Made by a program: the position numbers and the translations under genes. From Chloroflexota bacterium (GTDB lineage: Bacteria > Chloroflexota > UBA11872 > VXOZ01), in assembly GCA_026710945.1 (NCBI GenBank), contig JAPOQA010000031.1:50611-114610 (forward strand): 64,000 nt of DNA. The letters are read 5' to 3'. Below the pieces are notes generated by a model that was given only the letters and a program-made list of their open reading frames with translations, made no database searches and was not told where the DNA came from. Numbering within the stretch: position 1 is the stretch's first letter; each line of letters starts with the position of its first letter. Positions 12,626 through 57,356 of this stretch are shown one piece after another.

Positions 12626-12912
12626 CTGAGAATTGTAAGTGTTGAGTAATTCGTTGACAGAATCCGCTTTCCATTCTGAGGAGTTGACGGTGCATGTCAT
12701 TCCGAGCGGAGCGTCGAACCCTGTTCGCGGAATCTAGGGTCCCTGCTCAACGCACTTTAACGGCTTCAGCACACTAGATTCCGCGCTAAGAGCGACTCTT
12801 CGCTGCGCTTCGTTCGGAATGACATGTGTACTAGTCATGTCTAACACTGCGAAAGGTTGCTTTTGTTCTCAAATCTGTCAACGAATTACCTGACATTTAC
12901 AAGAATGACCGC
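12626..12912 (+). mobile_element. ~290-bp complex palindromic MITE-like element, copy 1
   Basis: Terminal inverted repeats tgttgagtaattcgttgacaga / tctgtcaacgaattacctgaca; long central palindrome gtcattccgagcggagcg...cgcttcgttcggaatgac; near-identical to the reverse complement of 57070-57356. Confidence 0.6.
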
Positions 12913-13050
12913 CGACCGCAGCGCGTCCGGGATTCATTTACTTAAGAACCTGTTGGGGGATTCAAGACATGCTTCGCCCGTCTTCGCCTATTCAGAATTG
13001 CCAAGGTCCGAGCATGTCATTCGCACAAGGCAGCTGAGTGAGAGCCTAGA

Positions 13051-14466
13051 CTACTCCGGCACCGGAGTGGGGGGCGGTTTCGGAGTGAGATACTCCTCGA
13101 TAGCGTCGTGGGCGTTTTGCGCCGCTTCCTCAATGGAAACTTGGCCCCGCGCCACGGGCAGGGTGAGCCGGCTGAAGATCTGCCAACTCAACACGGTTGA
13201 GGTTGCCAGGTGGGAAGGCACACTGTCCACCAGGAGTTCCAGCAATACGTCCCGCGCTATGGGGTCGAGCAGCAAGGACATGTACTTGCCGGCCGGCTTG
13301 TTGATGAATCCCTGCGCTTCCGTAACGGCCGGCACCAAGCGAATCTGGCCGAGGTGATGTCCCAGATGCAGCATGGTCGCGAAGCCCGCGTCGCCATGCT
13401 GGCTGCCGACCGGCATCACCAGCGCCTCCTGCAGGCCGAGTGGTGTCCCGCTGCGGTCTTCTTTGGGTATCACTGCGGGCATGCGGTCCGCCCTCAGCCT
13501 GCCAAAGAATGGATTGAAGACCATCGCTGTCTGCAGGCGCTGGCCGTCAATGGTGCCGCGCAGCGTATTGGAGTCTACATCCGGGCCATGTGGCATAACG
13601 CCATGGATGCGGCCGAGTTCCTGCCAGAAGCGGATGCCGCGCTGCGCCGCCGGTTCGGTGAGCTTGATCTCCCCCGTATCCAAATCTACGGCGTCGCCGC
13701 CCTCTTGGAGCACAAAAGGCAGCCAGCCCGGAATGCTCCACTCCGTATATCCCCAGAAGTCGATCTTCGTATCGCCGTCAACGTCCCGGGTCAGTGACTT
13801 GGCCGCGAAGATGAAGTCCTCGTGGTTCCACGTGTGCGTCGGCGTCGCTACTTTGAATTCCTCAAACTTTGTGCTGTTGTACATCACCATAGCCGGCAGC
13901 ACGGCCAGCGGCACGGCCATGAGCTGGCGCTGGTAGCGCGACAATTGCAGCGCGTTTCCCGCGAAAGACTCAAGCAGGTCGCTGTCCTCCGTCTGGGCGT
14001 AGCGATCCAGCGGCGCGAGGATTTGGTGGGTAAAGGCGCGCGGAAAGTCCAACGCGGAGTGCATCCAGGCGATGTCGAGCGGCGCACCGCTCGCGTCGCG
14101 GGCGACGACGAACTCCCAAAATGCATCACGCCACGACTTACCGCTCGGCCGCAGTATCTCTACGGCTTCTAGCTGAGAGCGCGGCGTGGGGCCGTCAATT
14201 TGCTCCTCGTTCCAGGCGCTGATGGCATTGCTGGCCTCGGTGGGGATGCCGGCGAGGCGCGCCATAAAGGCAAACGTCAGGGTCACCGGCTCGGCTGATT
14301 GGCCGCCGTCGGATGATCGCGGGGCTTCCCGGAATGGCGCATTGCCTTCAAGCTCGGGCCTTGCGCTTGCGCGCCCCGGACCCCCGCCACAGGCCGCGAG
14401 TACTGCAGCACTCCCACACAAAGCAGCCAGCGTCGCCACACACTCTCGTCTCGTCATCTCGTTCAC
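13051..14466 (-). CDS. extracellular solute-binding lipoprotein, ABC-type sugar SBP family 1, with no adjacent permease
   Basis: 471 aa; signal peptide with lipobox LAACGGG; SBP_bac_1-like fold pattern. Confidence 0.7.
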   Translation of the reverse strand: MNEMTRRECVATLAALCGSAAVLAACGGGPGRASARPELEGNAPFREAPRSSDGGQSAEPVTLTFAFMARLAGIPTEASNAISAWNEEQIDGPTPRSQLEAVEILRPSGKSWRDAFWEFVVARDASGAPLDIAWMHSALDFPRAFTHQILAPLDRYAQTEDSDLLESFAGNALQLSRYQRQLMAVPLAVLPAMVMYNSTKFEEFKVATPTHTWNHEDFIFAAKSLTRDVDGDTKIDFWGYTEWSIPGWLPFVLQEGGDAVDLDTGEIKLTEPAAQRGIRFWQELGRIHGVMPHGPDVDSNTLRGTIDGQRLQTAMVFNPFFGRLRADRMPAVIPKEDRSGTPLGLQEALVMPVGSQHGDAGFATMLHLGHHLGQIRLVPAVTEAQGFINKPAGKYMSLLLDPIARDVLLELLVDSVPSHLATSTVLSWQIFSRLTLPVARGQVSIEEAAQNAHDAIEEYLTPKPPPTPVPE

Positions 14467-14505
14467 CCTGATTCGTCAAACGCGTATACTTCTGAATCCT
14501 CGTCA

Positions 14506-15825
14506 CTAACGAGGCGGTGAACCGAGCCATTCACGCACCACGGCGGCACCGTTCTCCAGGGCGGCAGGGGCAGCGAGACTGCCTCTCAGCGCCGGCAAGG
14601 CCATCCGCTCGGTCAAGGTCTTCCCTAATCCACTATACAACGAGAGCGTAGTGCCGACACTATACGAGAGGCTTCGCAAGACCACGTCCGCTCGGTCCAG
14701 CCCCAATGCAAGGTCAGCGTGCATGCGGTTGGGACGACGGATGAACTCAATTGCGTTATTGCGCGGTGGCACCAGCAACTGTGACCCTAGTTGTGCGGCC
14801 AGCGGTTTGGCAACGGCGTAGGCAGCGTCAATATTCGCGCTGTGCGCGGAAACGCCAACCATGTCGGTGACCAACATGGGTAGGGATTGGGACGGCCCGT
14901 TGGGTGTCCCAACAAAGGCGAACGGCAATGAGTAAGGCTCCGTGTTGTGCCAGTTGATGAGTTCGAGGCGCAGCGGCGCTGTGGAAGAACCGTTTCGCCG
15001 CCGCATAACTGCATCCATGGTGACGTGCGGCCCGCCTTCCAGCGCCCGATAGCGGTGTGCAAGTTCCATCCAAAAATGCAGCCCGCGCCGGGCCTCTGAC
15101 TGGTCAAGCGTCGTTCTGCCGGCGCCAAGATCGGCAACCCGCCCGCCTGCGCCAACAATTAGAGGCAACCAAGCGGGAACGGTCGTCGTGCCAAACCCCC
15201 AAACTGTGCCCTTGTCCGCGGTGTGTGTCAGCGCCGCGGCCATCGTGGCAAATTCATCCCACGTCCAACTTGACAGCGGCGACGGCACCTCGCGCGCCGT
15301 GAGAACTTCAGTATCATACCGCACTGAAAGAATGCCCAGCGCCGCCGGGAGCGCCATTTGCTGTCCCCAAAACTCTAGGGCGCGCAATGACTCCGGATGG
15401 TAGCCCTTCAGTGTATTGTTGGTGTCGTTATCGAGAAAAGGGTTTAAGGGACGCAGCAAATCGCCGCGCAAGATCTCCGGGAGGTCATCCTGCAAACTGA
15501 ACCAGACAACGTCAGGAGCCTCGCCTGCCGCAACGCGCTGGCGAATTGCGGTCACAAACGAACGGCCGGGCGTGGCTACGATCCTGTGTACTTCTCTGAT
15601 GGTGGGTATGCCGTCGCGCCCGCCGGGCGCCAACCCGTAGCGCACTGTCGGCAACGCCTTGTCCAATACGGCGTTCACCCGGTCACCGGCTCGCACGGCA
15701 ACGGTGACGGTGACCTCCTCCGGCACTGGCGTCGGCGCATCGGGGGCGCCGCGTTTACCGCAGGCAAGCAACAGACCGCTGCCAAGGCCTGCACTGCCGG
15801 CTCGTAACAATTCTCGTCGCGTCAT
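14506..15825 (-). CDS. extracellular solute-binding lipoprotein, SBP family 1 paralog, with a TAT-like signal
   Basis: ORF 14506..15891; probable start at MTRRELLRAGSAGLGSGLLLACG (TAT-like RR plus lipobox); paralogous to the downstream SBP. Confidence 0.65.
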   Translation of the reverse strand: MTRRELLRAGSAGLGSGLLLACGKRGAPDAPTPVPEEVTVTVAVRAGDRVNAVLDKALPTVRYGLAPGGRDGIPTIREVHRIVATPGRSFVTAIRQRVAAGEAPDVVWFSLQDDLPEILRGDLLRPLNPFLDNDTNNTLKGYHPESLRALEFWGQQMALPAALGILSVRYDTEVLTAREVPSPLSSWTWDEFATMAAALTHTADKGTVWGFGTTTVPAWLPLIVGAGGRVADLGAGRTTLDQSEARRGLHFWMELAHRYRALEGGPHVTMDAVMRRRNGSSTAPLRLELINWHNTEPYSLPFAFVGTPNGPSQSLPMLVTDMVGVSAHSANIDAAYAVAKPLAAQLGSQLLVPPRNNAIEFIRRPNRMHADLALGLDRADVVLRSLSYSVGTTLSLYSGLGKTLTERMALPALRGSLAAPAALENGAAVVREWLGSPPR

Positions 15826-15913
15826 GGGCAAGACCCCCCGCAAAGAACTGTCCTTAGGGTACATACTCCCACTGCGCTTCAAATGTGTCAATCGCCTGGC
15901 GCAATGTTCCGGC

Positions 15914-16576
15914 TCAACTACGGAGCGCGAACTTCACCAGGGTCCACAACGCGTGCGGCCCGTCAATCCAAGGATTGAGCTTGCGCTCTCTGCGTGGCGT
16001 GTAAGATATCGGCACCTCACGAATGCCATAGCCTAGCTTCAGGATTTTCGCCGTGATCTCCGGCTCCAATTCAAAGCCCGAAGACTCGATAGTGAATCGA
16101 TCGACAACCTCCCTGGCCATCATCTTGTAGCACGTCTCCATGTCATGCAGCGAGGCCCGAAACAGGATACGTGTTACGAGGGTAAGGAAAACATTGCCGA
16201 GACGCCGGACGAACTCCTGGTGTTCCAACGATCGCACGCCATAGACCACCTTGGTCTCGCCCCGCGCGATCGGTCCCAGCAACGCCGGAAAGTCCGCCGG
16301 ATCATACTCCAGATCAGCGTCCTGAATGACGATCACGTCTCCCGTCGCCGCCGCCAACGCGGTGCGAATTGCCGCGCCCTTTCCTCTATTCTCCGGGTGA
16401 TAAACTACGTGGTACCGCTCGTCCTGGAGAGACTGTAACACTGCTGTCGTGCCGTCCGATGAGCCATCGTCTACGATGACGATCTCTTTCTCCAAAGAGA
16501 CGTCCGCCACGCGCTCCAGAACTGCGCGCACGGTCTCGCATTCGTTGTAGACCGGAATCAAAACGGAGAGTTTCAT
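15914..16576 (-). CDS. GT2 family glycosyltransferase, polyprenol/dolichol-phosphate mannose (or glucose) synthase-like (DPM1/Ppm1 catalytic domain), no TM segments
   Basis: ORF 15914..16606; start at MKLSVLIPVYNE; motifs VIVDDGSSDGT, QDADLEYDP; ~220 aa soluble domain. Confidence 0.8.
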   Translation of the reverse strand: MKLSVLIPVYNECETVRAVLERVADVSLEKEIVIVDDGSSDGTTAVLQSLQDERYHVVYHPENRGKGAAIRTALAAATGDVIVIQDADLEYDPADFPALLGPIARGETKVVYGVRSLEHQEFVRRLGNVFLTLVTRILFRASLHDMETCYKMMAREVVDRFTIESSGFELEPEITAKILKLGYGIREVPISYTPRRERKLNPWIDGPHALWTLVKFALRS

Positions 16577-16867
16577 AGCAGCTATACCATCGGTTGCAAG
16601 AATCAAACACCCAAACGCACTGGGAGGAGCGAGGCACTCAGGGAATGCCCAACGGGGCTAGGGGTGTCGGCAAATGCGTAGCTCAGAGTAAGTCAGGTCT
16701 AGGTTGGTTTAGGAGCGCCCCTACTATATCATTGGGTCCATAACTGAGTAAACACCTCCCACGATTCGAACTTGCCGGCGCCAAGCTGCACTGCTCTCGA
16801 GACCAGGGCAGGCCGCGACCGCGCTGTGCAGGATCATCTCCCATAATTCAGCGCCAAGGAGCACACA

Positions 16868-18580
16868 ATGGCCACGCCGCCGTACTCCGTACACGTGGAA
16901 CGAAATGTCGCCGTGCCCATGCGGGATGGCGTTGTCTTGCGCGCAGACGTTTACCGACCGGATGCTGCGGGGCCGTTTCCCGTAATCCTCACGCGCACGC
17001 CGTACAACAAGACTGCCTTAGACGGCGGTCCGTCACCTACCTACGAAACCCTGGCTGCGTCAGGGTATCTTATCGTGGCACAAGACGTGCGCGGCCGCTA
17101 TGCCTCGGACGGTGAATTCACGCCGCTCTTTGCCTTTGGCTATCCGGATATCGAAGACGGTTACGATACGGTTGAGTGGTGCGCGCGGCTGCCGGATTCA
17201 ACCGGCGACGTCGGCATCTTCGGCAACTCCTACGGGGGCTTTACTTCGTATTGCGCCGCTTTCAGCCAAGCCCCCAGCCTCCGCTGCGTCTTTGCCGAAG
17301 GTATGACCCAGCGCCTCACGGACTTTGAGCCGCACTTCCGTCCCGGGCGGCGCTTTGCCTGGTCTATGTGCACCATCGCGCCGGACATTCGTCTCAAGCA
17401 GGGCCTCGGTGGGCCGCATCACAAGGAGATTGCCGATCAATTGTGGGAACGTGAACGCCACAAGTGGCTGTGGTTCCTGCCCCGCAAGGACATACCGGAC
17501 GATCACTTTGGCGGGCCTGTGCAGGCCGCCTACTACCGCACGCTCATGACCGAGGCCGGCGTCGACACGTTCCAGTGGCAAGACCGCTACCCGGACGTCC
17601 GCGTACCGGTATTCCACCGCACGGGCTGGTACGACCGCTTCGTGCGCGCGATCGACGGCCATACGCTCATGGCACAGCAGGCCGGCACGCCGGAGGCCCG
17701 CGCCGGGCAGCGCGCCATGATTGGACCCTGGGGACACACAAGCGCCCTTAACGTCTACGAAGGCGAACTGGATTTCGGTCCTGACGGCCTTGTGGAGCAG
17801 ACCGACCTCCTGCTCCGCTGGTTCGATTTCTGGCTCAAAGACCAGGATACCGGCATCATGGACGAGGGGCCGATTAGCCTATATATTCTTGGCGACAATG
17901 CGTGGCGCAACGAGAATGAATGGCCGCTCGCGCGTACACAGTACACCGACTATCACCTACACAGCAACGGCAACGCGCAGACCCCTCACGGCGACGGCGC
18001 CCTTTCGCCAGATCAGTCGGGTGACGAGTCGCCCGACCAGTTTGTCTACGATCCTCGCGATCCGGTGCCCTCTTGCCATCTGATGCACGATCAAGACGGC
18101 GTCTTCGACCAGCGCGTGCTGGATTCTCGCCAGGACGTGCTCGTCTACCAGACCGACACCTTGACTGAGCCATTGGAGGTGACCGGCGAACCGGTCCTGC
18201 ACCTGCATGCCGCTTCCAGCGCCGTTGACACGGACTTCATGGCAAAACTGATCGACGTCCACCCCAATGGCTTTGCGCAAAACCTCAGCTACGGTGTCGT
18301 GCGCGCCCGCTACCGCAATGGCTATGAGTCGTCGCAACTGCTAACGCCCGGACAGGTGTATGAATTCACCATCACGCTCAACCCGATCGCGAATGTCTTT
18401 CAACCCGGCCACCGCCTGCGCCTGGATATCTCCAGCAGCGACTTTCCCAACTGGGACCGCAACCTGAACACCGGCAGCGACGGCTACGCGGATGCCACGA
18501 TGGTCAGCGCCCGCCAGACTGTGCTTCACGATGCCAACCACCCAACGCGCATCACTTTGCCCGTTATTCCGAGAGACTGA
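16868..18580 (+). CDS. CocE/NonD family alpha/beta hydrolase (S15 Xaa-Pro dipeptidyl-peptidase-like)
   Basis: 570 aa; N-terminal VPMRDGVVLRADVYRP...PVILTRTPYNK and nucleophile elbow GNSYGG. Confidence 0.8.
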   Translation: MATPPYSVHVERNVAVPMRDGVVLRADVYRPDAAGPFPVILTRTPYNKTALDGGPSPTYETLAASGYLIVAQDVRGRYASDGEFTPLFAFGYPDIEDGYDTVEWCARLPDSTGDVGIFGNSYGGFTSYCAAFSQAPSLRCVFAEGMTQRLTDFEPHFRPGRRFAWSMCTIAPDIRLKQGLGGPHHKEIADQLWERERHKWLWFLPRKDIPDDHFGGPVQAAYYRTLMTEAGVDTFQWQDRYPDVRVPVFHRTGWYDRFVRAIDGHTLMAQQAGTPEARAGQRAMIGPWGHTSALNVYEGELDFGPDGLVEQTDLLLRWFDFWLKDQDTGIMDEGPISLYILGDNAWRNENEWPLARTQYTDYHLHSNGNAQTPHGDGALSPDQSGDESPDQFVYDPRDPVPSCHLMHDQDGVFDQRVLDSRQDVLVYQTDTLTEPLEVTGEPVLHLHAASSAVDTDFMAKLIDVHPNGFAQNLSYGVVRARYRNGYESSQLLTPGQVYEFTITLNPIANVFQPGHRLRLDISSSDFPNWDRNLNTGSDGYADATMVSARQTVLHDANHPTRITLPVIPRD

Positions 18581-18605
18581 ATCCCGCGGCTGACTGCCTA
18601 AGTGA

Positions 18606-18630
18606 GCACAAGTTTGCAACCTGCGCTACC
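18606..18630. repeat. short palindromic REP-like element (GGTAGCGCAGG-TTTGCAA-CCTGCGCTACC family), half copy
   Basis: caagtttgcaacctgcgctacc lies 26 nt downstream of the hydrolase stop; related copies at 20032, 53600 and 31062. Confidence 0.5.
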
Positions 18631-18712
18631 GTTCGGATGGCGCGTTCGCCGCGCTACTTGGCTTAGGCCGCGTTTCCGTCGGCAAGTCGGCGGGCATTGA
18701 GAGGATCCGGGC

Positions 18713-19996
18713 ATGGCGAGCCAAGCGGTAGGCCTAAGGGAAAAGTTGCTCCTCCTAACTGAAGGCCACCGCCGCCTATATCGCAACTCCTCGTTTGTAT
18801 TGCTCTGGAGCGGTCAGACGGTCTCTGTTTTTGGTGATGCCTTCTTCAATCTCGCCGTCATGTGGGTGGTGTGGTCGGAGACCCAGTCAACCCTGCAGAC
18901 CGCCATCATACAGGCCATCTGGCACCTCCCCGATGTCCTTCTTGCGCCCTTGGCCGGCGTCCTCGCCGACCGCTGGGACCGCAAAGCGATCATGGTAACG
19001 ACCAGCCTCGCCGCGGCAGCAGTGGTGGGAGCGGTGGCCCTGCTGGTGATGCTAATCGGACACCTGCCTCCCATCGTTGCCTTTGTAGCAATCTTCAAGC
19101 TAAACAGCCTGACTACGTTCATGAACCCAGCCCGCGCCTCGGTCATGCCCTCCCTTGTAGGGCGTGACCTGCTGACCACGGCCCAGGGCTTGTTTTCCAC
19201 CGCCAGAGAAACAGCATCTTTGGCTGGCAGCGCGGCTGCCGGGCTGCTGATCGCGGCTGCGAGTGCAGTGTGGGCCTTGGCGGTCGATGCGGCGTCGTTC
19301 CTGTTCGTGGCGCTGTGTATCGCGCTCGCCCGCCTGCCAGGCAGGGCTGCCCCATCCGCCGCCTCGAATGAGGCTCGTCCTCGGCTCTCTCTGGGGTCAG
19401 TCGCCCAAGACCTGCGGGAAGGGTGGCGGACGGCCACCGGGCTGCCGGTGTTGCGGGCGTTGCTGTGGCTCAGCGTCCTTATCAACATCGGCTCCTTCAT
19501 GGGTCCGCTGTGGCCGGCCCTTGTACAGGAGCGTCTTGGCGGCGGGGCGGGCTCTTTCGGCATGCTTTTGGCAGCAGGGACGGCAGGCGGCATGTTTGGC
19601 GGACTTTTGGCCGGGCCGTTAGAACGGCGCCTCGGCGCAGGGCGTGTTCTGGCATCGGGCTGGAGCCTGTCGGGGGCATGCACGTTGGGGATAGCAATCT
19701 CCACCTGGATGACAGCGACCGTGGTCCTGGAGTTCGTAGAGACCGCCTCACTTACCGCCAGCATGGTGGCGAGTGGCGCGATCACGATTACAGCCGTTCC
19801 TGAAGAGTACCGCGGCCGGCTCTTTGGCGTATTCCGCAGCCTGTCCGTCGTCCTCATCCCCGCGAGTGCCCTCGCCGGAGGGTTCATTGCGGAGTTCGTG
19901 GAGATTTGGATCATGTTCGCCGCTGGCGGAGAGATAATCCTCGCCCTCGCGTTGACCGCCTGGGTGAATCCCCACGTTAGAAACGCGCGCATCTGA
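18713..19996 (+). CDS. MFS transporter (EntS/YbdA-like MFS_1)
   Basis: 427 aa; 12 predicted TM helices; motif LAGVLADRWDRK after TM2. Confidence 0.8.
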   Translation: MASQAVGLREKLLLLTEGHRRLYRNSSFVLLWSGQTVSVFGDAFFNLAVMWVVWSETQSTLQTAIIQAIWHLPDVLLAPLAGVLADRWDRKAIMVTTSLAAAAVVGAVALLVMLIGHLPPIVAFVAIFKLNSLTTFMNPARASVMPSLVGRDLLTTAQGLFSTARETASLAGSAAAGLLIAAASAVWALAVDAASFLFVALCIALARLPGRAAPSAASNEARPRLSLGSVAQDLREGWRTATGLPVLRALLWLSVLINIGSFMGPLWPALVQERLGGGAGSFGMLLAAGTAGGMFGGLLAGPLERRLGAGRVLASGWSLSGACTLGIAISTWMTATVVLEFVETASLTASMVASGAITITAVPEEYRGRLFGVFRSLSVVLIPASALAGGFIAEFVEIWIMFAAGGEIILALALTAWVNPHVRNARI

Positions 19997-20031
19997 GAGG
20001 CGCGGGGAGAATTCGAGTCCGGGTAGCGCAG

Positions 20032-20057
20032 GTTTGCAACCTGCGCCGATATGACCA
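20032..20057. repeat. short palindromic REP-like element, same family as 18606 and 53600
   Basis: ggtagcgcaggtttgcaacctgcgcc lies 36 nt downstream of the MFS stop; hairpin stem GCGCAGG/CCTGCGC. Confidence 0.55.
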
Positions 20058-20164
20058 AATTTGATACCCGTGCTACCGCCCGGTCGGGGCGCCGCGACAA
20101 TGCCCACAAACGTCAACCGCCCCGAGCCGCGCGGTAAAGCGGAACCGCACAAACGCTTACTTCT

Positions 20165-20837: not shown

Positions 20838-21116
20838 TGTAATACTCCTTAACTTCTTCTCCCTATTTCCTTAAGTAATACTATTCTATAGGTAATACAT
20901 CTGCCAAGGGCACACCAACCTAGAATCTTTCCCGTTACCTGCATTCCCCCACTACCGCACACATGCCTGCCAGGCCTAACACACCCCTTCTCCCTTGACG
21001 GTAAGCGTGATGCTGCAGCCTGCCGAATCTCTCTGCATTCGCTACAATAGATGGTACTACTCGAAATCTACTGCCATTCGGCGAGACCCCTACTGTTTGT
21101 GAGGCAAAGAATTACC

Positions 21117-25923: not shown

Positions 25924-25926
25924 TCT

Positions 25927-35214: not shown

Positions 35215-35645
35215 GCTTAGGGTAGCGCGGGGGCTTGTCCCCCGCTCCGGGCGCAACCACGCGAGGAGACGCGGATGGATTCCCGTTTTCGCGGGAATGA
35301 CGGATCGGGGATACACCCTCTCTCATCGCCAAGACGTGTTCGATGCGGCTAAACTTCGCCTTTCCTGTGCGGGACACCCCGGCACGTAGCGCGGGGGCTT
35401 GTCCCCCGCTCTTTGAGTTTCGCACTTGGCTCAGAGTAGATGGATTCCCGCTTTCGCGGGAATGACGGATCGGGGGTGTTCCCTCTCTCATCACCAAGAT
35501 GTGTTCGATGTAGCTAAACTTCGCCTTATCTGTGCGGGACACTCCGGCACGTAGCGCGGGGGCTTGTCCCCCGCTCTTGGCACATCGCACATATCGAAGA
35601 TCGGATAGTTTCCCGTTTTCGCGGGATTGACGGCAATTGGAACGG
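35215..35645. repeat. tandem array (~165-bp unit, ~2.7 copies) built from two hairpin families with variable ~27-bp inter-hairpin segments; not CRISPR
   Basis: Units start at 35221, 35384 and 35553 with ggtagcgcgggggcttgtcccccgctc; second hairpin ggattcccgytttcgcgggaatgacgg at 35275, 35443 and 35608; the conserved ~90-bp tail is absent from the last unit. Confidence 0.7.
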
Positions 35646-44074: not shown

Positions 44075-44083
44075 CCATTACGC

Positions 44084-48473: not shown

Positions 48474-49855
48474 ACCGACGCTTTTACATTACCCTGGCAT
48501 TCATTGTCGTATTCGTCTCGCTGGCAAGCTATGTCAATTGGCCCGGCAATCCAGGTCTCAACCTCGGTATCGGCAATTCGCGCCTTGTGCGCGACCTCCG
48601 CTATCACTTAGGCCTCGACCTGCAGGGCGGTCTCCATGTAGTGTTGCGAGCCACTCCCGCGGAAGATCAGAACATCACGTCCGACCACATGGAAGCCACA
48701 CGGGGTATCATTGCCGAACGCGTGAATGCCTTGGGTGTCTCGGAGCCCATCGTGCAATTGGAGGGCACCGACCGCATCATCGTCGAACTACCCGGCGTAG
48801 CTAACCCGGATGAAGCCATCGCACTCTTCCGCGAAACCGGCGAACTTGCCTTCGTTGACCTTGGCAGAAGTTCAGTCCCACCCATTCAGGTAGGCGGGCT
48901 CGTTGAAGGTGAGCAGTATCGGAGGCTCTTCACCGGGGCTATGGTTGAGTCTGCGGAAGTCGGCTTCGATGAGCGCAGCCTGCCGCAGATCAACTTTGAA
49001 CTCAAAGATGAAGGCGCGGTAATCTTCGAAGAGTTTACGTCTCAAAACGTCTGTGTACGCTCAGGCGGCTCACCGTGCACCTGGCTGGGCATTACGCTCG
49101 ACAACTACCTAATCTCTGCTGCTACGATCTCGAGTACCATCTCAAACCGCGGTCGCATTACGGGGAACTTCACCCTGGAAGAAGCGCGTGATATTGTCAT
49201 CAAACTGAAGTACGGCGCCCTGCCGGTACCGCTGGAAATAGCACAGAACCGAACCGTTGGCCCTACGTTGGGCCAAGACTCGGTTGACCGCAGCCTCCGG
49301 GCCGGAATTATCGGCTTGGCGCTTGTTGCCACCTTCATGTTGATCTACTATCGTATGCCCGGCCTGGTAGCAGTTGTCGCCCTGCTGATCTACGCGCTCT
49401 TAGTGCTTGGTATCTTCCGGCTGTGGCCGGTCGTGCTCACGCTCGCAGGTATCGCCGGATTCATCCTCTCCGTTGGTATGGCTGTGGATGCCAATATCCT
49501 GATTTTCGAGCGTCTGAAGGAAGAGCTGCGCCGGGGCAGATCCTTGCGCTCCGCCCTTGACGTCGGCTTCGATCGTGCTTGGACGTCGATCCGAGACTCC
49601 AATATTTCCACGTTGATTACGTGCGCCGTGCTCTTCTATTTTGGTACGGGCATCGTGCGTGGTTTCGCCGTCACACTTGCGATCGGCGTAATCATAAGCA
49701 TGTTTACGGCGATTACGATAACGCGCACGTTTCTTTACGTCGTGGTACGCCTCCCGCAACTGCGCGACCATCCGTGGCTCTATGGTGTTGGTCAGGAAGA
49801 AGAGCCATCTCCCGAGCCTCGCCAAACACCGCCGCAGCAAGCAACGGAACCATAA
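48470..49855 (+). CDS. secD: protein translocase subunit SecD
   Basis: 461 aa; GLDLQGG motif; periplasmic domain followed by a 6-TM RND-like C-terminus; ATGA overlap with recA. Confidence 0.9.
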
Positions 49856-49869
49856 GTAGTGAATCCTCG

Positions 49870-51357
49870 ATGTCGCTAGAATCTCGCCCCATAGACTCTG
49901 TTCGTGGGATGCTGGACCTCGACTCCCAGCAGACCCACGTGCAAGCTCAACTGCGGCAATCTCTGCTCGATGCCTTCCAACTCGCAAGCTATGTCCCCAT
50001 CGAAGTGCCGCTGGTGGAGCAGGCTGATCTCTACTTGCGCAAGTCCGGCGCCGAGACAATCTCCAAGATGTACACCTTTGAAGACTTCGGCGGACGTCGC
50101 TTGGCGTTGCGCCCGGAACTCACCGCCTCAATCGTTCGCTACTACCTGGGAAACGATCAGAACTCCACTTTCCCGCTGCGATATGCCTACTCTGGGCCGG
50201 TGTTCCGCTACGAAAAACCGCAACGCGGGCGTTTTCGCCAGTTCTCGATGGCAGGCGTAGAGCTACTTGGTAGTGACGGGCCGTCCGCCGATGCCGAGGT
50301 GATAGCGTTAGCGTGTTGGACGCTCAAAAGACTTGGCATCGCACAATACCGGCTCGTTATCGGTCACGTTGGCATTCTCTTGGAATTACTTGGCAGCTTG
50401 GGACTTTCGACCCGTTTGCGGCACTTTCTCCTCGACAGCATGGAAGACGTGGGGAGGCCCGGGCGGGGCCTGGGCTACGTGCGCAAGCGCCTGGAAGAGA
50501 TCCACCCTAACCGGCGGGCCGCAGCAACGACACAAGAGTCCTTTACCGGCTCCGAGGAGCAGGCACAAGCCACGCTGCGCGCATCGTTGCAGGAGATGGG
50601 AATCGAGCTCGACGGCAGCCGACCGGCAGAGGCAATACTCGGCCGGATGTTTCGCAAACAACGCGCTTCCGATGAAGATGAGCGGCTGGAACGCGCATTT
50701 GAGTTTATCCAAGGCTTGCACGACCTTTCGGGAGCACCAGGGGAAGTGCTGGAACGCGCACGAAAGTTTCTGGAGTCATTTGGCTTAGGCGACCAGCCCC
50801 TTAGCCGCCTTACTGATGTGGTGGCGGCGCTCCATGCCTATGGCATTGAGGATTCTCACGTGCAAGTGCAACTCGCTCTCGGGCGCGGCCTCCATTACTA
50901 CACCGATGTGGTGTTCGAGCTGTACGACTCAACAGGCCAGAGCCAGTTGTGTGGCGGCGGCCGCTACAACGAACTTGTGCAATCCCTTGGCGGGCGCAAG
51001 TCCGTTCCGGCGGTGGGATTCGCGTTTGGCCTGGAGCGCCTCCGGCTGGCTTTGGACGAGCAAGGCGCTGCGCCGCCGGCTCCGCCGCCAACGCAGGTGC
51101 TTGTGGCTGCAGCCAGCACAGGCGCCACACACGCCAGCATGCAAACAGCGCAGCGGCTCCGGGAACAGGGCATCAGCGCGGAACACGACCTGCGGCAACG
51201 CGCCGAGCGTGCGCGCATTGGCTACGCCAATCGGAGGGGAATCCCTTTTGTCCTCTTAGTAGAGGACAAAAATGACACCGCAATCCTGCGTAATCTATCC
51301 GAAGCCACCGAACAAGCGCTTTCATTGGGTGAAGTGGTGCAGGTGCTCAATGGCTGA
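49870..51357 (+). CDS. histidine--tRNA ligase family protein (HisS, or HisZ-type regulatory paralog)
   Basis: ORF 49579..51357; start at ATG 49870 after the secD stop; class-II aaRS motif 2 (LRPELTASIVRYY, FRYEKPQRGRFRQF) and motif 3 (CGGGRYNELV); C-terminal anticodon-binding-like domain; stop overlaps the hisG start. Confidence 0.7.
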   Translation: MSLESRPIDSVRGMLDLDSQQTHVQAQLRQSLLDAFQLASYVPIEVPLVEQADLYLRKSGAETISKMYTFEDFGGRRLALRPELTASIVRYYLGNDQNSTFPLRYAYSGPVFRYEKPQRGRFRQFSMAGVELLGSDGPSADAEVIALACWTLKRLGIAQYRLVIGHVGILLELLGSLGLSTRLRHFLLDSMEDVGRPGRGLGYVRKRLEEIHPNRRAAATTQESFTGSEEQAQATLRASLQEMGIELDGSRPAEAILGRMFRKQRASDEDERLERAFEFIQGLHDLSGAPGEVLERARKFLESFGLGDQPLSRLTDVVAALHAYGIEDSHVQVQLALGRGLHYYTDVVFELYDSTGQSQLCGGGRYNELVQSLGGRKSVPAVGFAFGLERLRLALDEQGAAPPAPPPTQVLVAAASTGATHASMQTAQRLREQGISAEHDLRQRAERARIGYANRRGIPFVLLVEDKNDTAILRNLSEATEQALSLGEVVQVLNG

Positions 51358-52366
51358 AGCGCTGCGTCTGCTCGTGCCAAGCAAGGGCCGCATTGGGGAG
51401 CAAACACTGGATTTCTTCGCCAGGTGCGGCCTTGACGTCGTGCGTCCAAATTCGCGCGCATATGAAGCGACGTTCCCGACAGTTCCCAACGTGGCGATCC
51501 TCTTTCAGCGCGCGTGGCAAATGGTCGAGCAAATTCGCAACGGTGACGCCGACGCCGGCATTACCGGCTTTGACATTCTGTCTGAAATGCGGCAAGAAGG
51601 CGACAATCTCGTGGTCGTCGCGGAAGACCTGGGGTACTCCCAGGGGAGACTCGCCATTGCGGTACCGGAGGAATGGATAGACGTTCGTACCTTGACCGAC
51701 CTTGCCGAAGTGGCGCTAGAGTTTCGCGAAAGAGGCCGGGTACTGCGCATTGCCACGACCTTTCCTTCCCAGACTCGCCAGTTTCTCTTCCAGCAGGGCA
51801 TCACGTACTTCCAGGTTGTGCAGGCCGAGGGCGGTCTGGAGGCGGCGCCGACTCTCGGCTATGCCGATATCATCGTTGACTTGGTTTCCACGGGCGCAAC
51901 GCTCAAAGACAACCGGCTCAAGATGATCGAACATGGGGTCATTTTGGAAACGCAGGCATGTCTTGTCGGAAATCGAGAACGACTGCGCGCGAGCGCTGCC
52001 AAGCGGGAGGCGCTGCGGCAGATCCTGGAACACATAGAAGCTTCGCAAAGCGCCGAACCATACTCGACGCTTACCGCAAACATGCAAGGAGACTCTGCAG
52101 AGGCAATCGCGGCCAAGCTAGCGGCATTTCCGGAAGTCGGCGGTCTGCTCGGCCCAACAATTGCTCGAGTATTTGCCAGAGATGAGCAGGACGATTCGTG
52201 GTTCGCGGTAACCGTCCAGGTAAAGTCCAAGGACTTGCTCTCTGCTGTGGCAAGCTTGCGGCAAGCGGATTGTATGAGCGTCTCCGTTACCTCTCCGCAC
52301 TACATCTTTGCGCGGGAGAGTTCCCTTTACCGCGGCCTTCTCCAGACACTGAAATTGGAAGAATGA
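51350..52366 (+). CDS. hisG: ATP phosphoribosyltransferase, long form with C-terminal regulatory domain
   Basis: ORF 51272..52366; start at MAEALRLLVPSKGR; motifs DAGITGFD and DLVSTGATLKDN; C-terminal HisG_C-like ~90 aa. Confidence 0.85.
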   Translation: MAEALRLLVPSKGRIGEQTLDFFARCGLDVVRPNSRAYEATFPTVPNVAILFQRAWQMVEQIRNGDADAGITGFDILSEMRQEGDNLVVVAEDLGYSQGRLAIAVPEEWIDVRTLTDLAEVALEFRERGRVLRIATTFPSQTRQFLFQQGITYFQVVQAEGGLEAAPTLGYADIIVDLVSTGATLKDNRLKMIEHGVILETQACLVGNRERLRASAAKREALRQILEHIEASQSAEPYSTLTANMQGDSAEAIAAKLAAFPEVGGLLGPTIARVFARDEQDDSWFAVTVQVKSKDLLSAVASLRQADCMSVSVTSPHYIFARESSLYRGLLQTLKLEE

Positions 52367-52510
52367 GCAGCAGCGCTATCGCTGCGGGAAACGTCCGTGA
52401 GCATAAGGCCGAATTGGACAAGAGCCGTGGCTGTGAAACAAGCAGTAATCAAGCGTCGCAGATTTGGGATATAGTGTACGGTATTGCAATGAAGATGCGT
52501 AAAACGCAAA

Positions 52511-52540
52511 CCGTCATTCCCGCTTCCGCGGGAATCCATC
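52511..52540. repeat. REP-like hairpin (gtcattcccgcttccgcgggaatcc family), inverted relative to the copies in the 35.2-35.6 kb array
   Basis: ccgtcattcccgcttccgcgggaatccatc; it generates the spurious '...VIPASAGIH...' reading frame of ORF 52198..52680. Confidence 0.5.
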
Positions 52541-52672
52541 GTGTCTCTTTGCAAGACACTAGTCCCGCTGGAGCGATGGCGACAAACCAATCAACCTCTC
52601 TGGCCGTTGCAAACCGGCCGGCGCGGGACAGACCTAAAACCACGCACATGAAAGACAGGGTAGCTGCATCAA

Positions 52673-53566
52673 ATGTTTGACATTGTCGGCCGCAGGAAGT
52701 GGGCTTACGTTGTATCAGCGGTAATAATCGTTCCGAGTATTCTTTCGCTCATCTTCTTCCGCTTGCAACCAGGTATCGACTTTTCTGGCGGTACTATCTA
52801 TGAACTACGCTTCGACGCCACACCAACTACCGAGGAAATCAAGCGCGTCTACCTGAGCCTCAATCTTGGCGAGCCACTTGTGCAGGCGACAGGTGAGGGC
52901 ACGGTCATTATCCGTTCAAAGGAACTTGGGCTGGAGGATAAGCAAGCCGTGCGCGGCGCTCTGGAAGAGGTAAACGGCCAAGCTGAGGAGCTGCGCTTCG
53001 AAGCTGTGGGACCCGTGATCGCCCGGGAACTCACCCAGAGAGCCATTCTCGCGGTGCTGGTAGCATCAGTGGGTATTCTTGTGTACATCACGTGGGCGTT
53101 TCGCCACGTACCCCAACCTTTCCGCTATGGCGTCTGCGCGATCTGCGCGCTTGTCCACGATGTATTGATCGTGTTGGGCGTATTCTCCGTGCTGGGTTTC
53201 CTGGTCAATAAAGAGATCGACTCTATGTTCATTACGGCCATTCTCACCGCCATCGGCTATTCGGTGCACGATACGATCGTGGTCTTCGACCGTGTGCGTG
53301 AGAATCGCTCCAAATATGCCTATGCGCCCCTTCCCACCGTCGTGAACTTCAGTGTCAATCAGACGATCGACCGCTCGTTGAACACGTCCATCACGTTGCT
53401 CATTACACTCTTTGCGCTTTACCTCTTTGGGGGTCTGGCCATCAAGGACTTCGTCCTGGCGCTCCTGATCGGCACGGCAACAGGTACCTATTCCTCGATC
53501 TTCATTGCCGCGAGCCTGCTGGTGGATTGGGACGTCTTCTCTCGGCGTCAGGTTGAGGCGTCGTAG
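52673..53566 (+). CDS. secF: protein translocase subunit SecF
   Basis: 297 aa; GIDFSGGT motif followed by a 6-TM domain. Confidence 0.9.
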   Translation: MFDIVGRRKWAYVVSAVIIVPSILSLIFFRLQPGIDFSGGTIYELRFDATPTTEEIKRVYLSLNLGEPLVQATGEGTVIIRSKELGLEDKQAVRGALEEVNGQAEELRFEAVGPVIARELTQRAILAVLVASVGILVYITWAFRHVPQPFRYGVCAICALVHDVLIVLGVFSVLGFLVNKEIDSMFITAILTAIGYSVHDTIVVFDRVRENRSKYAYAPLPTVVNFSVNQTIDRSLNTSITLLITLFALYLFGGLAIKDFVLALLIGTATGTYSSIFIAASLLVDWDVFSRRQVEAS

Positions 53567-53599
53567 ACCGCTTAGTGGTTCTACAACATTGCAACCACC

Positions 53600-53625
53600 G
53601 GTAGCGCAGGTTTGCAACCTGCGCC
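53600..53625. repeat. short palindromic REP-like element, same family as 18606 and 20032
   Basis: ggtagcgcaggtttgcaacctgcgcc lies 34 nt downstream of the secF stop. Confidence 0.55.
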
Positions 53626-53691
53626 GTTGCCCCGCGTTATCGGACAACAGCACCATGCGCAACTGCTCGCCAATACGACATTCTTGTTCTA

Positions 53692-54840
53692 CTAAGGCAC
53701 TGCAATGCGCGGCAGAGCCGGGTTGATGCGACTCACAATCTCGTAGTTGATCGTCCCAACGTGTGTCGCAATGTGTTCTGCCGGGATCTCCGTCCCCAGC
53801 AGCGTTACCTCATCGCCAACCTGGACCCCTGGAATGTCGGTTACGTCAATGAGTGTCATGTTCATCATGACGCGACCGACAACGGCTGCGAGCCTGCGGC
53901 GCACGGCAACTTTTCCCACATTCGACAGCTTGCGGTCATAGCCGTCAGAGTATCCCACAGGGATGACTGCTATGTTTGAATCGCGCCGCGTGCGATACGT
54001 GCGCCCATACCCCACGGTCTCGCCACGCGCCACGTTCTGTATGTGCACGATACGCGTCTTCCATTGCATGACGGGACGTAGCGTCAGGGGTTGCGCAGAG
54101 CGCTCTGTCATAGCGATCTTCGTGTCCAGCGACGGCCACAAGCCGTAGAGACCAATGCCGATGCGCGCCAACCTGCCGTGCGCGGCCGGCGCCACCACTG
54201 TCGCCGCCGTTGCCGCCATGTGCTGATATGTTACGCCCATCCCGGCGCGTGCCAAGGCCGCCTGCGCCTCCGCAAAACGGCTGATCTGCAATTGGAGATA
54301 GGAGTCATCAGCCGTATCTTCCGCCGTCGCAAAGTGGGTGTAGATGCCCTCGACCGTGAGATGAGGCAAGGACTGCAACTGCCGCAGAAACGGGAGCGCC
54401 TCCTGGAACCCAACGCCCAGCCGGTACGTGCCCGTCTCGATCTTCACGTGCACGGCGGCGGTCACGTTCTGCGCCACCGCGGCCTGTGCCAGACACGCGG
54501 CGGCGGCTTGATCGAAGACAACCTGCCGAAACCCGAGCCGCACGACCTCCGCGGCGCGGCTATGGGGGGTAAAGCCCATGATCAAGACCCGCAGCGGCCC
54601 GGCTCCGTGGCGCGTCGTAATCCCGTCGTTGTGCAACGCCAACGCTTCATCAAGTGTATTGACGCCGAGCCAATCGACATGAGCGGCGATGCTCCGAGCC
54701 ACAACGCGCAGTCCGTGGCCGTAGGCGTTGGCCTTGACAACAGCCAACAGAGAAGCCCCTGGGCTTAGCCGTTGTCTGAACGCGGTGATATTGTGCCACA
54801 GCGCGCCGCGGCTGATCTCTATCCAGGTAAGGGGTTCCAT
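53692..54840 (-). CDS. alr: alanine racemase
   Basis: 382 aa; PLP-lysine motif AVVKANAYGHG; C-terminal beta domain. Confidence 0.85.
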   Translation of the reverse strand: MEPLTWIEISRGALWHNITAFRQRLSPGASLLAVVKANAYGHGLRVVARSIAAHVDWLGVNTLDEALALHNDGITTRHGAGPLRVLIMGFTPHSRAAEVVRLGFRQVVFDQAAAACLAQAAVAQNVTAAVHVKIETGTYRLGVGFQEALPFLRQLQSLPHLTVEGIYTHFATAEDTADDSYLQLQISRFAEAQAALARAGMGVTYQHMAATAATVVAPAAHGRLARIGIGLYGLWPSLDTKIAMTERSAQPLTLRPVMQWKTRIVHIQNVARGETVGYGRTYRTRRDSNIAVIPVGYSDGYDRKLSNVGKVAVRRRLAAVVGRVMMNMTLIDVTDIPGVQVGDEVTLLGTEIPAEHIATHVGTINYEIVSRINPALPRIAVP

Positions 54841-54904
54841 AGTCTAAGCATCCAGACTCGGTTGATGTACTCTTGCCAGTGCCGGCTCAAGCCTCGCCAA
54901 CAAG

Positions 54905-54945
54905 CTGTAGCGCGGGGACTTGTCCCCCGCTTCTTGGCGCATAAG
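54905..54945. repeat. solitary copy of the array hairpin, gtagcgcggggacttgtcccccgcttcttggcgcat
   Basis: Matches the first ~40 bp of the repeat unit at 35553 (gtagcgcgggggcttgtcccccgctcttggcacat); located between alr and the methyltransferase gene. Confidence 0.5.
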
Positions 54946-54987
54946 GTAAGGGCTGCCTCGGGCAAGGGGATTAGGGGAGACGCGATC

Positions 54988-55776
54988 CTAGGCTCTCACG
55001 CCGCTGAGGACGATCTCGTGTCGAGTCAAGAGAAGGTCTTCACCAACGCGCTGTGGCGAGAGACCAGCCAGGTCACCTTCCAGCCCGTCCCAGAGCATTT
55101 TCCTCGCAATTTCGCGGTTCTCATCAGTGGTGTTGGCGGTCTCGAACCATTCACTGGCCAGCATTTCCCGCTTCAGCAGGCGCGCGTCTCGCACCGGGCA
55201 GCCAACGTCCGCCATCATCCGGCTCAATTGACTCTCGCTGAACGCCTGTACGTGGGAGTGCCCACGCAAGCGCTCCATGCGGTTGAAGTACGCCGCTTTC
55301 TGCGGGTCTTCCGGCATGCCGAACTCGCCAATAACCAGCCGGCCTCCCGGCGCGAGCACACGCGCCATTTCTTGCATAGCCGGTATGGCATGCGTAAAGT
55401 GATGAACGCTAAAGCGGCATGTCACAACGCTGAACATCCCATCGGCAAACGGTAAGCGCGTCGCATCAGCCGCCGCAAAAGATATTTGCCCGTCACTTGC
55501 CACCGCGCCGTCCGTCTCTTGTTGCTCCGCGGCGCGGGCAAGCATGGCGGCCGTGAAGTCCACGCCAATGACTGAGCCGCTTCCCGTGATTTCCGCGGCA
55601 AGCGCAAACGCGACCAAGCCAGTGCCGGTTGCCACGTCAAGCGCGGTCGTGTCGGCTCCGGGCGTGGCCAAGGCGACCATCACCTCCACCGTGTCGCCCT
55701 GCCCGCCCGTATAGGATGCCGCCCGCTCCGTAAAGTGCTGTCGTACGTCCTGATCCGATGGTGCCTGTTCGCTCAT
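54988..55776 (-). CDS. class I SAM-dependent methyltransferase (UbiE/COQ5-like, type 11)
   Basis: 262 aa; motif I LDVATGTGLVAFALA; acidic loop and motif II/III in order. Confidence 0.7.
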   Translation of the reverse strand: MSEQAPSDQDVRQHFTERAASYTGGQGDTVEVMVALATPGADTTALDVATGTGLVAFALAAEITGSGSVIGVDFTAAMLARAAEQQETDGAVASDGQISFAAADATRLPFADGMFSVVTCRFSVHHFTHAIPAMQEMARVLAPGGRLVIGEFGMPEDPQKAAYFNRMERLRGHSHVQAFSESQLSRMMADVGCPVRDARLLKREMLASEWFETANTTDENREIARKMLWDGLEGDLAGLSPQRVGEDLLLTRHEIVLSGVRA

Positions 55777-56001
55777 GTGCGATCTCCCAGATTCTATCGT
55801 TATGTCAACAGCAGTGGCGCGGCAATTTGCTTCGGCTCACCTACCTCGCAACAACTGCCACCTCACCGCCGCAAGGACGCCGAAATCTTGCCGGAGACTT
55901 CCACTGCTGGCTCTAGCCTATCACGGCTCCACAGTCACGTCAGCTGACCCATTTTGTTCCCAACAAACCACTATGCAGCGCACGACGCAGGAACGGATTG
56001 G

Positions 56002-56880
56002 TTACGGCGCCTCAGCGAGTTTCCTCTGCTCATCGGCAAGAAACGGCGGTTCGGCTGCGCCCACGTTTGCCTCAAGTTCCTCCGTGTTCATCATGCCGGT
56101 GATGCACGCCGCCACGTGCGGATAGGAGAGCACGAACTTGATCGCGGCTGCGTGCAGGGACTCAACCGGCGGCTTGACGAGCGCCGCCGTCAGGCGTTCC
56201 ACAGTTGCCGCGTCCTGAAAAAGCCGCCCGGAAGCAAAAGGCGACCGCGCCAACACGCCAACCCCTTTCTCCGCGCAGAGCGGAAAGAGCTCTGCCGCCG
56301 CCTCTTGCAGCGCCACGCTATACGAGACCTCAACCACGTCTGCGTAGCCCTGCCGCACGGCCTCCAGGCAGGCCGCTACGGAAGACGAAAGCCCAATGCT
56401 GCGCACCTTGCCGGCCTGTTTCAGTTCGCGCAGCGTCTCCCAGGGTTCTTCGCGTTTGACTACGTCCACCGGCGGATCGTGCAGGAGATACGCGTCAATG
56501 TAGTCGGTCTGCAAGCGGCGCAGGCTCAGTTCACATTCGTGGCGAATGTACCACGGCTCATAGCATTGCGGCTGGGGCACGCCCCGCTGTTGAAAGAGCG
56601 CCTGCGCTCCATCTATGCCCACCAGGTAGCCCGCCTTCGTGATGAGCACCGTGTCTGCGCGCCGCCCGCGCAATGCTTCGCCCAGAATTACTTCCGAGCG
56701 ACCGTTGCCGTAAGCGTCGGAGGCGTCATAGGTGGTGACACCGAGATCCAGGGCGCGATGCAGGATTTCGACGCTATCTTCGGCATCTATCGGTCCCCAC
56801 CAGAGCCCGCCGAGTTCCCAGGTTCCCAACGCGAAGGCTGAGACATCGATGCCGGTTGTGCCTAGTTTGCGCGTTTCCAT
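56002..56880 (-). CDS. aldo/keto reductase
   Basis: 292 aa; LGTWELGG, DASDAYGNGRSEVILGEAL, IGLSS AKR signatures. Confidence 0.8.
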   Translation of the reverse strand: METRKLGTTGIDVSAFALGTWELGGLWWGPIDAEDSVEILHRALDLGVTTYDASDAYGNGRSEVILGEALRGRRADTVLITKAGYLVGIDGAQALFQQRGVPQPQCYEPWYIRHECELSLRRLQTDYIDAYLLHDPPVDVVKREEPWETLRELKQAGKVRSIGLSSSVAACLEAVRQGYADVVEVSYSVALQEAAAELFPLCAEKGVGVLARSPFASGRLFQDAATVERLTAALVKPPVESLHAAAIKFVLSYPHVAACITGMMNTEELEANVGAAEPPFLADEQRKLAEAP

Positions 56881-57069
56881 TGGCGCTCTCCTCTATTCCA
56901 TTAGGAGCCAACCTACGACTAGCCATTGCCACCTCACTGCGAGTAGTATACGCGAGACCACCAACAAGAGTGTCCAATCCCAAACTCACCGCTTCTTAAA
57001 TTCCTATGAGTAGACTTGAGCCTGGAATATAGAGATATGATTGTCAACCATGCAAGGCTATTCCCGGCA

Positions 57070-57356
57070 TGTCATTCTTGTAAATGTCAGGTAATTCGTT
57101 GACAGATTTGGCACAAGAAACATGGGAGTAGAACTCTGTGCTCACCTACACACATGTCATTCCGAACGGAGCGTAGCGGAGTGTCGCTCTTAGCGCGGAA
57201 TCTAGAGTGCTGAGGCCGTGAAAGTGTGTTGAGCAGGGACCCTAGATTCCGCGAACCCTGTTCGACGCTACGCTCGGAATGACAAGGCCTTGTAGCGCTT
57301 TCTTCGGGAAAGCAAATTCTGTCAACGAATTACTCAACACTTACAATTCTGAGGAG
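57070..57356 (-). mobile_element. ~290-bp complex palindromic MITE-like element, copy 2 (inverted relative to copy 1)
   Basis: The reverse complement aligns end-to-end with 12626-12912, including TIRs and the central gtcattccg...cggaatgac palindrome; located in the divergent AKR/GMC intergenic region. Confidence 0.6.

Follow-up and report, generated by a model that had tools for sequence, protein, structure and literature searches.

We describe a short repeat that occurs twice, in inverted orientation, in a 64-kb stretch of DNA from a Chloroflexota bacterium (contig JAPOQA010000031.1 of assembly GCA_026710945.1, positions 50,611 to 114,610; the whole stretch is called the window here, and coordinates refer to it unless a locus is named). 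The repeat is a non-coding element of 268 bp whose 28-nt ends are the terminal inverted repeats (TIRs) of a 1.05-kb insertion sequence (IS) resembling the IS481 family, and we are highly confident that it is a MITE (miniature inverted-repeat transposable element). It is shorter than about 600 bp and codes for nothing, it has TIRs and a target-site duplication (TSD) of fixed length, it shares its ends with an IS, its copies are dispersed, and the family to which it belongs has been mobile. An earlier note on this DNA had left the choice between a non-autonomous mobile element and a structured RNA gene family. Copies in relatives, TSDs, the lack of any larger duplication and an IS with the same ends all speak for the first.

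The inverted repeat on which that note was built, 12626-12912 against the reverse complement of 57070-57356, is real. When the wider intervals 12526-13012 and the reverse complement of 56970-57456 are aligned, the similarity proves to be modular. The left ends of the two copies, A and B (44-51 nt), are 92-95% identical, the cores (135 nt, 12695-12829 against 57150-57284) are 91% identical with a blastn E value of 2e-45, and the right ends (40 nt) are 100% identical. The matching blocks are separated by two linkers, one of about 22 and one of about 40 nt, that cannot be aligned. Over the whole element blastn gives 79% identity, and the longest perfect runs common to both copies are 37 and 35 nt. 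A sensitive blastn search of the 64-kb window with both copies found no third one. The boundaries first proposed located the element but were too wide. Its true limits are 12634-12901 and 57079-57345, and the surplus conserved bases are accounted for by the 5-bp TSD (AGAAT) and the GAC of the target motif. The similarity between A and B ends a few bases beyond the terminal repeats, so that the copies are not part of a larger duplication.

The autonomous partner was found by scanning genomes, one per species, for the 22-nt end pattern TGTNNNGTAATTCGTTGACAGA. At least 120 stretches matched, and 120 loci (denoted L with a number) were fetched. Paired, opposed end matches in these loci form two size classes, one of about 240-270 bp and one of 1046-1061 bp. 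Members of the larger class have the same ends and a single open reading frame (ORF) of about 323-343 aa, which matches the Pfam families rve_3 (5.8e-21), rve (8.6e-11) and rve_2 (8e-10). The best NCBIfam model is that of the IS481 family transposase, with 206.2 bits (E 7e-61) against a curated cut-off of 224, and the next is IS3 with 81.5 bits. In tblastn the best full-length plasmid matches are annotated as IS481 family transposases and are 29-34% identical. As IS481 is the best family, yet the score falls below the cut-off and the identity is only of this order, we call the partner IS481-like and regard it as a divergent member. According to ISfinder, members of the IS481 family are about 1-1.3 kb long, have ends that start with TGT and make a short TSD; the partner, with ends TGTA..., a 5-bp TSD and a length of 1046-1061 bp, fits this description. 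Its transposase ORF terminates inside the terminal repeat (…NLSTN and stop). That an autonomous element with the ends of the MITE exists in relatives supports the non-autonomous status of the MITE, and within L078 the two lie 1.8 kb apart.

The TIRs of the MITE (TGTAAGTGTTGAGTAATTCGTTGACAGA / TGTAAATGTCAGGTAATTCGTTGACAGA), noted at first in a shorter form, have arms of 28-29 nt that are 83-86% complementary within each copy. Similarity between MITE and IS is confined to the terminal 28-34 nt, where identity with the 1060-bp IS copies is 93-97%. Each end of the MITE matches the corresponding, slightly different end of the IS, and the left arm of copy A matches the one that holds the transposase stop codon. 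Derivation of the MITE from the IS by internal deletion is ruled out, since the terminal 28-34 nt alone match.

Flanking direct repeats, which the earlier note proposed to look for, are present as 5-bp TSDs at both window copies and also in relatives. The ATTCT around copy B is the same pentamer as the AGAAT around copy A, read on the opposite strand. Among the 80 scorable paired elements an exact 5-bp TSD occurs in 45, and one with at most one mismatch in 53; by chance an exact TSD is expected about once in a thousand (4^-5). The sites themselves are far from random. In 45 reconstructed targets the positions -3 to -1 are G, T and C in 45, 44 and 44 cases, and in 34 the pentamer that was duplicated reads ATTCC. 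Insertion shows a strong preference for GTC|ATTCC (= GGAAT|GAC), the bar marking the cut, and both window copies occupy the variant GTC|ATTCT. The sequence GTCATTCC is the outer end of the palindrome GTCATTCCGAGCGCAGCGAGGAATCT, which resembles a repetitive extragenic palindrome (REP), and also of related hairpins such as CCGTCATTCCCGC…GCGGGAATCC. GTC|ATTCC thus terminates a REP-like palindrome abundant in these genomes. The target octamer occurs 8 times in the window against 1.85 expected; four of the occurrences are inside the two MITEs and four in unoccupied REP-like hairpins. Removal of copy B restores an empty site (57071-57078 joined to 57351-57430), an 88-nt degenerate sequence similar to a REP doublet forming a hairpin (REPIN), which aligns with both arms of the MITE core.

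It could be argued that a single segmental duplication or inversion, and not independent insertion, left the two copies behind. Their TSDs are of one unusual variant, with AGAAT in place of GGAAT, and the three bases next to it agree as well, which would fit such an origin. We give this almost no credence. The common flank is the general target motif of 45 other insertions, similarity ends at the TSD plus GAC, and the linkers of A and B come from different subfamilies, each of which is common to copies elsewhere.

Mobility was assessed by removing each element with one copy of its TSD and searching all loci for matches spanning the junction. Such matches were obtained, and two of them are clear. 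In L048 the sequence …CATTTGATGTCATTCCGAGCGCAGCGAGGAATCTAAG… is uninterrupted at 688-933, and at 3749-4796 it is split by a 1048-bp IS with ATTCC duplicated. In L003 a 286-bp MITE (4623-4908, TSD GGAAT) lies within the …CGTTCGGAAT|GAC core end of another MITE (4451-4994), and once it is excised the restored sequence aligns with intact copies over the junction. IS and MITE alike have thus been inserted as discrete units, an observation made on the family and not on the two window copies.

Further copies, whose number the earlier note had proposed to establish, are many in related genomes. The 120 listed loci together with the window contain at least 49 MITE-sized elements. At least 13 of these copies, in 11 loci, belong to OZ219801/OZ219802, the closest relative among the matches listed, and one of its paralogues (L106 692-947) is 91% identical to copy A. 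By record title the listed loci are 55 Chloroflexota, 43 Dehalococcoidia, 8 Nitrospirales, 7 Balneolaceae, 4 Gammaproteobacteria, 1 Bacilli and 2 unclassified. The IS481-like IS is common in sponge-associated Chloroflexota, and such a bacterium is also the most likely source of the window. Accession MKWU01 includes a 1739-bp sponge-metagenome contig that matches 55190-56928 at 100% identity and ends short of copy B, and this accession is cited in two papers on Mediterranean sponge microbiomes (PMC5649159, PMC5099237).

The distribution of the ends suggests that the IS lineage has spread across phyla. We note that the 22-nt IS end is present in Nitrospirales (L018, L041, L046, L055), Gammaproteobacteria (L068, L070), Balneolaceae (L022, L072, L093, L107) and Bacilli (L033, from sheep colon). 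Each non-Chloroflexota group has short derivatives of its own, 205-345 bp long and in Balneolaceae 500-750 bp, and the targets in these loci are related (GGGAT|GAC, GTC|ATCCC). The names of some of the metagenome-assembled genomes (MAGs) that carry the IS end indicate sponge or coral hosts.

What the MITE carries between its ends does not stem from the IS: it is a REPIN-like doublet of the palindrome that serves the element as target. The internal palindrome GTCATTCCGAGCG...CGTTCGGAATGAC was found as first claimed. In a full-length alignment of 33 Chloroflexota copies conservation is found at the two ends, in a left unit TGTCATTCCGAGCGCAGCGAGGAATCTAG and in a right unit TAGATTCC…GCGCTGCGCTCCGTTCGGAATGACATG, and the two units jointly form an inverted doublet of the target palindrome; the centre of about 30 nt and both linkers vary. 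Since the core is such a doublet, each MITE brings two fresh target sites with it. Core-like sequences without TIRs exist as well, some at about 68-72% identity, and further ones at L048 688-933 and beside copy B (57351-57430). The MITEs of Nitrospirales and Gammaproteobacteria have the same ends and a different interior. As ends are common and interiors differ across phyla, it is the ends and not the core that define the mobile unit.

These observations bear on whether the whole unit could be an element of the REP/REPIN type, moved as single-stranded hairpin DNA by a REP-associated tyrosine transposase (RAYT, of the Y1/HUH type), with an incidental likeness to IS ends. The 135-nt core, being a doublet of inverted REP-like units, would suit such a view, as would the core-like sequences that lack TIRs (L048 688-933; window 57351-57430) and a genome rich in other REP-like hairpins, including an array resembling bacterial interspersed mosaic elements (BIMEs). 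We nevertheless consider it very unlikely. At the boundaries lie 28-nt repeats with 93-97% identity to the two ends of an IS with a DDE transposase, and MITEs of Nitrospirales and Gammaproteobacteria keep these ends while differing inside. In addition 5-bp duplications flank the elements, which HUH/Y1 transposition (IS200/IS605-type elements) is not known to make. Movement of the RAYT type may apply to the core alone.

Among the variable parts of the MITE, a few discrete types of linker and centre can be told apart, and the copies combine them in various ways. Copy A has left type 1, centre a and right type 1, copy B left type 3, centre a and right type 3, L036 left type 2, centre b and right type 1, and L053 left type 1, centre b and right type 2. 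Linkers of copy A are shared with L106, L017a and L053, and those of copy B with L027 and L074. Recombination or gene conversion between copies would best explain this mosaicism, which accounts for A and B being alike in ends and core and unlike in linkers. A small-scale variation was also observed. The two orthologues of copy B (window 57079-57345 and L027 1521-1761) are about 99% identical and differ by two symmetric replacements, through which both side hairpins of the core, 12-14 nt long, are lost (CGTCGAAC-NNN-GTT and, in the other arm, GCGCT-NNN-AGCGAC). Over the 33 copies each side hairpin is independently present or absent. Between A and B the loop of CGAAC-NNN-GTTCG is inverted, reading CCT in the former and AGG in the latter. 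As a cause of these differences we would guess at gene conversion of short patches among copies.

A structured non-coding RNA gene family, the other proposal of the earlier note, would have the long hairpin as its product and the linkers as specificity or loop regions. Both copies do fold far below shuffled sequence (about -119 kcal/mol, z about -8.3 and -8.5), but strong folding is expected from any nested DNA palindrome, and, the element being a DNA palindrome, one strand folds as well as the other. One TIR of each copy contains a weak, outward-facing match to a sigma-70 promoter (CTGTCA-17-TACAAT), but the direction of these matches bears no relation to that of the neighbouring genes. Nothing beyond weak consensus matches came from the promoter and terminator scans, a tRNA/tmRNA scan found no such gene, and Rfam has no family at gathering score in the whole window. 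Pairing in the element is kept as sequence, with no compensatory changes: over the 33 copies the covariation term is 0.02 kcal/mol, a double change is seen in 2 of 44 predicted pairs, and there is no conserved pairing in the linkers or the centre. Arms conserved as sequence are what is expected of transposase-binding ends and REP units. The TSDs, the target motif and the IS with the same ends account fully for the anatomy. Linkers acting as guide-like RNA segments, in the style of bridge RNA or omega-RNA, were considered separately and are out, given the discrete shared types, the lack of covariation, the TSDs and the DDE partner.

The genes around the two copies are likewise of opposite arrangement, which does not favour an RNA gene. 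Both copies are intergenic and non-coding, as the earlier note stated: the only ORFs that extend over the ends are short, and no ORF is conserved or lies wholly within the element. Copy A sits between convergent 3' ends, namely the stop of a 54-aa ORF (12587) and that of a 471-aa ORF on the opposite strand (13051). Copy B sits between divergent 5' ends, the starts of an aldo-keto reductase gene (56880) and of a 538-aa ORF (57629). The element thus has no consistent gene context. We tentatively take the 538-aa ORF (57629-59245) to be a GMC-type oxidoreductase; an exact look-up of its record returned no entry, for which a different start call is the probable reason. All in all, an RNA gene family appears to us very improbable.

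For the MITE the following course of events can be proposed. The rve-type DDE transposase of the IS, supplied in trans, would bind the two MITE ends and then cut and paste, or copy, the element into a new site, leaving the 5-bp duplication. Insertion is steered to GTC|ATTCC at the end of a REP-like palindrome. With its core doublet each MITE brings two target sites, and nested insertions do occur; copies within one genome may swap segments and become mosaics. A function for the host is unnecessary to explain the element.

Several points weigh against this interpretation. An exact TSD is lacking in about 40% of the elements, and the transposase score is under the IS481 cut-off, as given above. 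Searching with the IS transposase (tblastn) found no transposase gene in the 64-kb window, and no full-length IS was found in the 11 loci of the closest relative among the matches listed; transposition in trans is something we infer. No empty orthologous site for copy A or B was found among the related loci. Copy B is present in a relative with 96.6% identity, so that both window copies may be old and immobile.

This relative is a Chloroflexota MAG (L027, OZ219801.1), the closest among the matches listed, and the identity refers to window 55556-59246. Its orthologous site for copy B is filled, has the same TSD and is colinear with the window throughout. The earlier note had suggested that the two inverted copies could recombine and invert the 44 kb between them. 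Such recombination is possible but would be inefficient (inverted copies, 44 kb apart, 79% identity), and no inversion was seen in L027, the one relative open to comparison; its colinearity through copy B means that no inversion breakpoint in B separates these two genomes. In a relative of 78-79% identity (L117) the sequence upstream of the putative GMC oxidoreductase gene is unalignable, and no empty copy B site was recovered there. The region of copy A is rearranged in a relative that is 80-83% identical (OZ242329.1: L078 and L098 against window 8271-15761). The genes that flank copy A are 40 kb apart in OZ242329.1, and a MITE is located at L078 3585-3851, directly after the orthologue of window 11567. 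MITE-rich intergenic spots thus coincide with breaks of synteny. A further difference between the window and L027 concerns the neighbouring gene: L027 has directly downstream, at 3925-6195, a second copy (83% identity) of the region 57643-59913 with the 538-aa ORF. As the window has that region only once, the gene was locally duplicated or lost in one of the two strains.

Table 1. Parts of the two MITE copies and of their insertion sites, in window coordinates
Feature	Position	Strand	Remarks
MITE copy A, element proper, 268 bp	12634-12901	+	TGTTGAG-type end written first; bounds TGTAAGTG...CATTTACA
MITE copy B, element proper, 267 bp	57079-57345	-	inverted relative to copy A
Copy A core	12695-12829		REPIN-like doublet; inverted REP-like units GTCATTCCGAGCGGAGCG... 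/ ...CGTTCGGAATGAC, centre of ~30 nt, two small side hairpins
Copy B core	57150-57284		REPIN-like doublet, 91% identity to copy A core
Copy A TIR, left arm TGTAAGTGTTGAGTAATTCGTTGACAGA	12634-12661	+	96% identity to nt 1-28 of the 1060-bp IS as oriented there
Copy A TIR, right arm TGTAAATGTCAGGTAATTCGTTGACAGA (on - strand)	12874-12901	-	97% identity to the other 32 terminal nt of the IS
Copy B TIR, TGTAAATGTCAGG-type arm	57079-57106	+	inverted-repeat search, comparison with IS ends
Copy B TIR, TGTAAGTGTTGAG-type arm	57318-57345	-	inverted-repeat search, comparison with IS ends
Copy A left TSD, AGAAT	12629-12633		identical to the 5 nt after the element
Copy A right TSD, AGAAT	12902-12906		followed by GAC of the target motif
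Copy B TSD, ATTCT	57074-57078		GTC directly before
Copy B second TSD, ATTCT	57346-57350		5 nt matching the first TSD
Remainder of a degenerate solo REPIN-like sequence	57351-57430	+	hit by copy B at its GTC|ATTCT end; empty-site reconstruction

Other repeats of the window deserve a brief mention. A tandem array at 35222-35633 consists of 2.5 copies of a 165-nt unit made of two REP-like hairpins (GTAGCGCGGGGGCTTGTCCCCCGC, GGATTCCCGTTTTCGCGGGAATGACGG). It is a BIME-like cluster between two genes and holds unoccupied GGAATGAC target motifs; the 179-aa ORF called over it is probably spurious. The short palindrome GGTAGCGCAGGTTTGCAACCTGCGCCG is present in three copies at gene ends (18602-18631, 20022-20048 and 53599-53626) and represents another REP-like family. 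At 59921-60158 a pair of 29-nt inverted repeats, CCCTCTCCTTGGGAGGCCGTCTCATAATT / AATTATGAGACAGCCTCTTGGGGAGAGGG, 180 nt apart, adjoins the repeat CTTGGGGAGAGGGTCGGGGTGAGGGG, which recurs at 11784-11809. This pair is possibly a second, unrelated MITE-like element.

A broader suggestion can be made regarding the IS and its MITEs. They may be a lineage specialised on a single REP-type motif (GTCATTCC), whose cargo plants two landing sites with every insertion and so drives nested arrays and mosaics, and the presence of the same 22-nt ends in MAGs of Chloroflexota, Nitrospirales, Gammaproteobacteria and Balneolaceae may reflect movement between phyla in animal-associated communities. We put this forward tentatively, being somewhat more inclined to doubt it than to accept it. 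The targeting, the cargo and the nesting are plain in the loci themselves; self-reinforcing dynamics and cross-phylum transfer within holobionts would be a further step, one that we infer.

In practical terms, a conspicuous repeat turns out to be selfish DNA and not a gene, and no ORF or RNA annotation of it is warranted. In genomes of sponge-associated Chloroflexota the family can be annotated by its 28-nt ends, its 5-bp duplication and its GTC|ATTCC target. Rearrangements could have their breakpoints in the copies, which are also useful strain markers. An IS481-like lineage joins the ISs known to home to REP-type palindromes, and we have an example of a MITE that carries its own target repeat as cargo. 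The general understanding of MITEs is unaltered by this.

How do these elements compare with what is known? The partner IS is like the IS481 family in its length of about 1.05 kb, its single rve-type DDE ORF running into the terminal repeat, its TGT ends and its short TSD. It is unlike IS481 in its target, GTCATTCC, with a 5-bp TSD; IS481 itself makes a 6-bp duplication at NCTAGN. Like REP-targeting ISs it is directed into repetitive extragenic palindromes and so stays in intergenic DNA. IS1397 inserts in the loop of the REP, whereas the present IS cuts the palindrome at its outer end (GTC|ATTCC) and a MITE derivative shares the target. Known REP-targeting ISs are IS1397 and ISKpn1 (IS3), IS621, ISPpu9, ISPpu10 and ISPa11 (IS110) and ISRm22 (IS4) (PMC1525189). 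In their 2006 survey Tobes and Pareja report such targeting in the IS3, IS110, IS4, IS256 and IS5 families, with IS481 unmentioned (PMC1525189). Targeting of REP ends by an IS481-like lineage is a modest extension of this known REP-directed insertion.

The 135-nt core resembles REPINs and BIMEs (Bertels and Rainey 2011, PMC3116915; Ton-Hoang et al. 2012, PMC3333891) in having two inverted REP-like units around a spacer, a long hairpin and core-like copies that stand alone. It differs from them (PMC3116915, PMC3333891) in that the window doublet is cargo inside a unit bounded by TIRs and flanked by TSDs. In the open-access literature searched we found no description of an IS481-derived MITE or of this element. 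The closest systems for comparison are bacterial MITEs of DDE ISs, i.e. RUP of Streptococcus pneumoniae with IS630-Spn1, the cyanobacterial Nezha and the IS982-related MITE of Cardinium (PMC9769881). Like these, the present element is small, non-coding, multi-copy and intergenic, with TIRs shared with an IS, a fixed TSD and a strong potential for hairpins. Unlike them, it has an IS481-like partner, and its interior is a REPIN-like doublet of its own target repeat and not a deleted IS. It is otherwise an ordinary MITE, in which the carriage of its own target repeat and the nesting that goes with it are neat and unsurprising.

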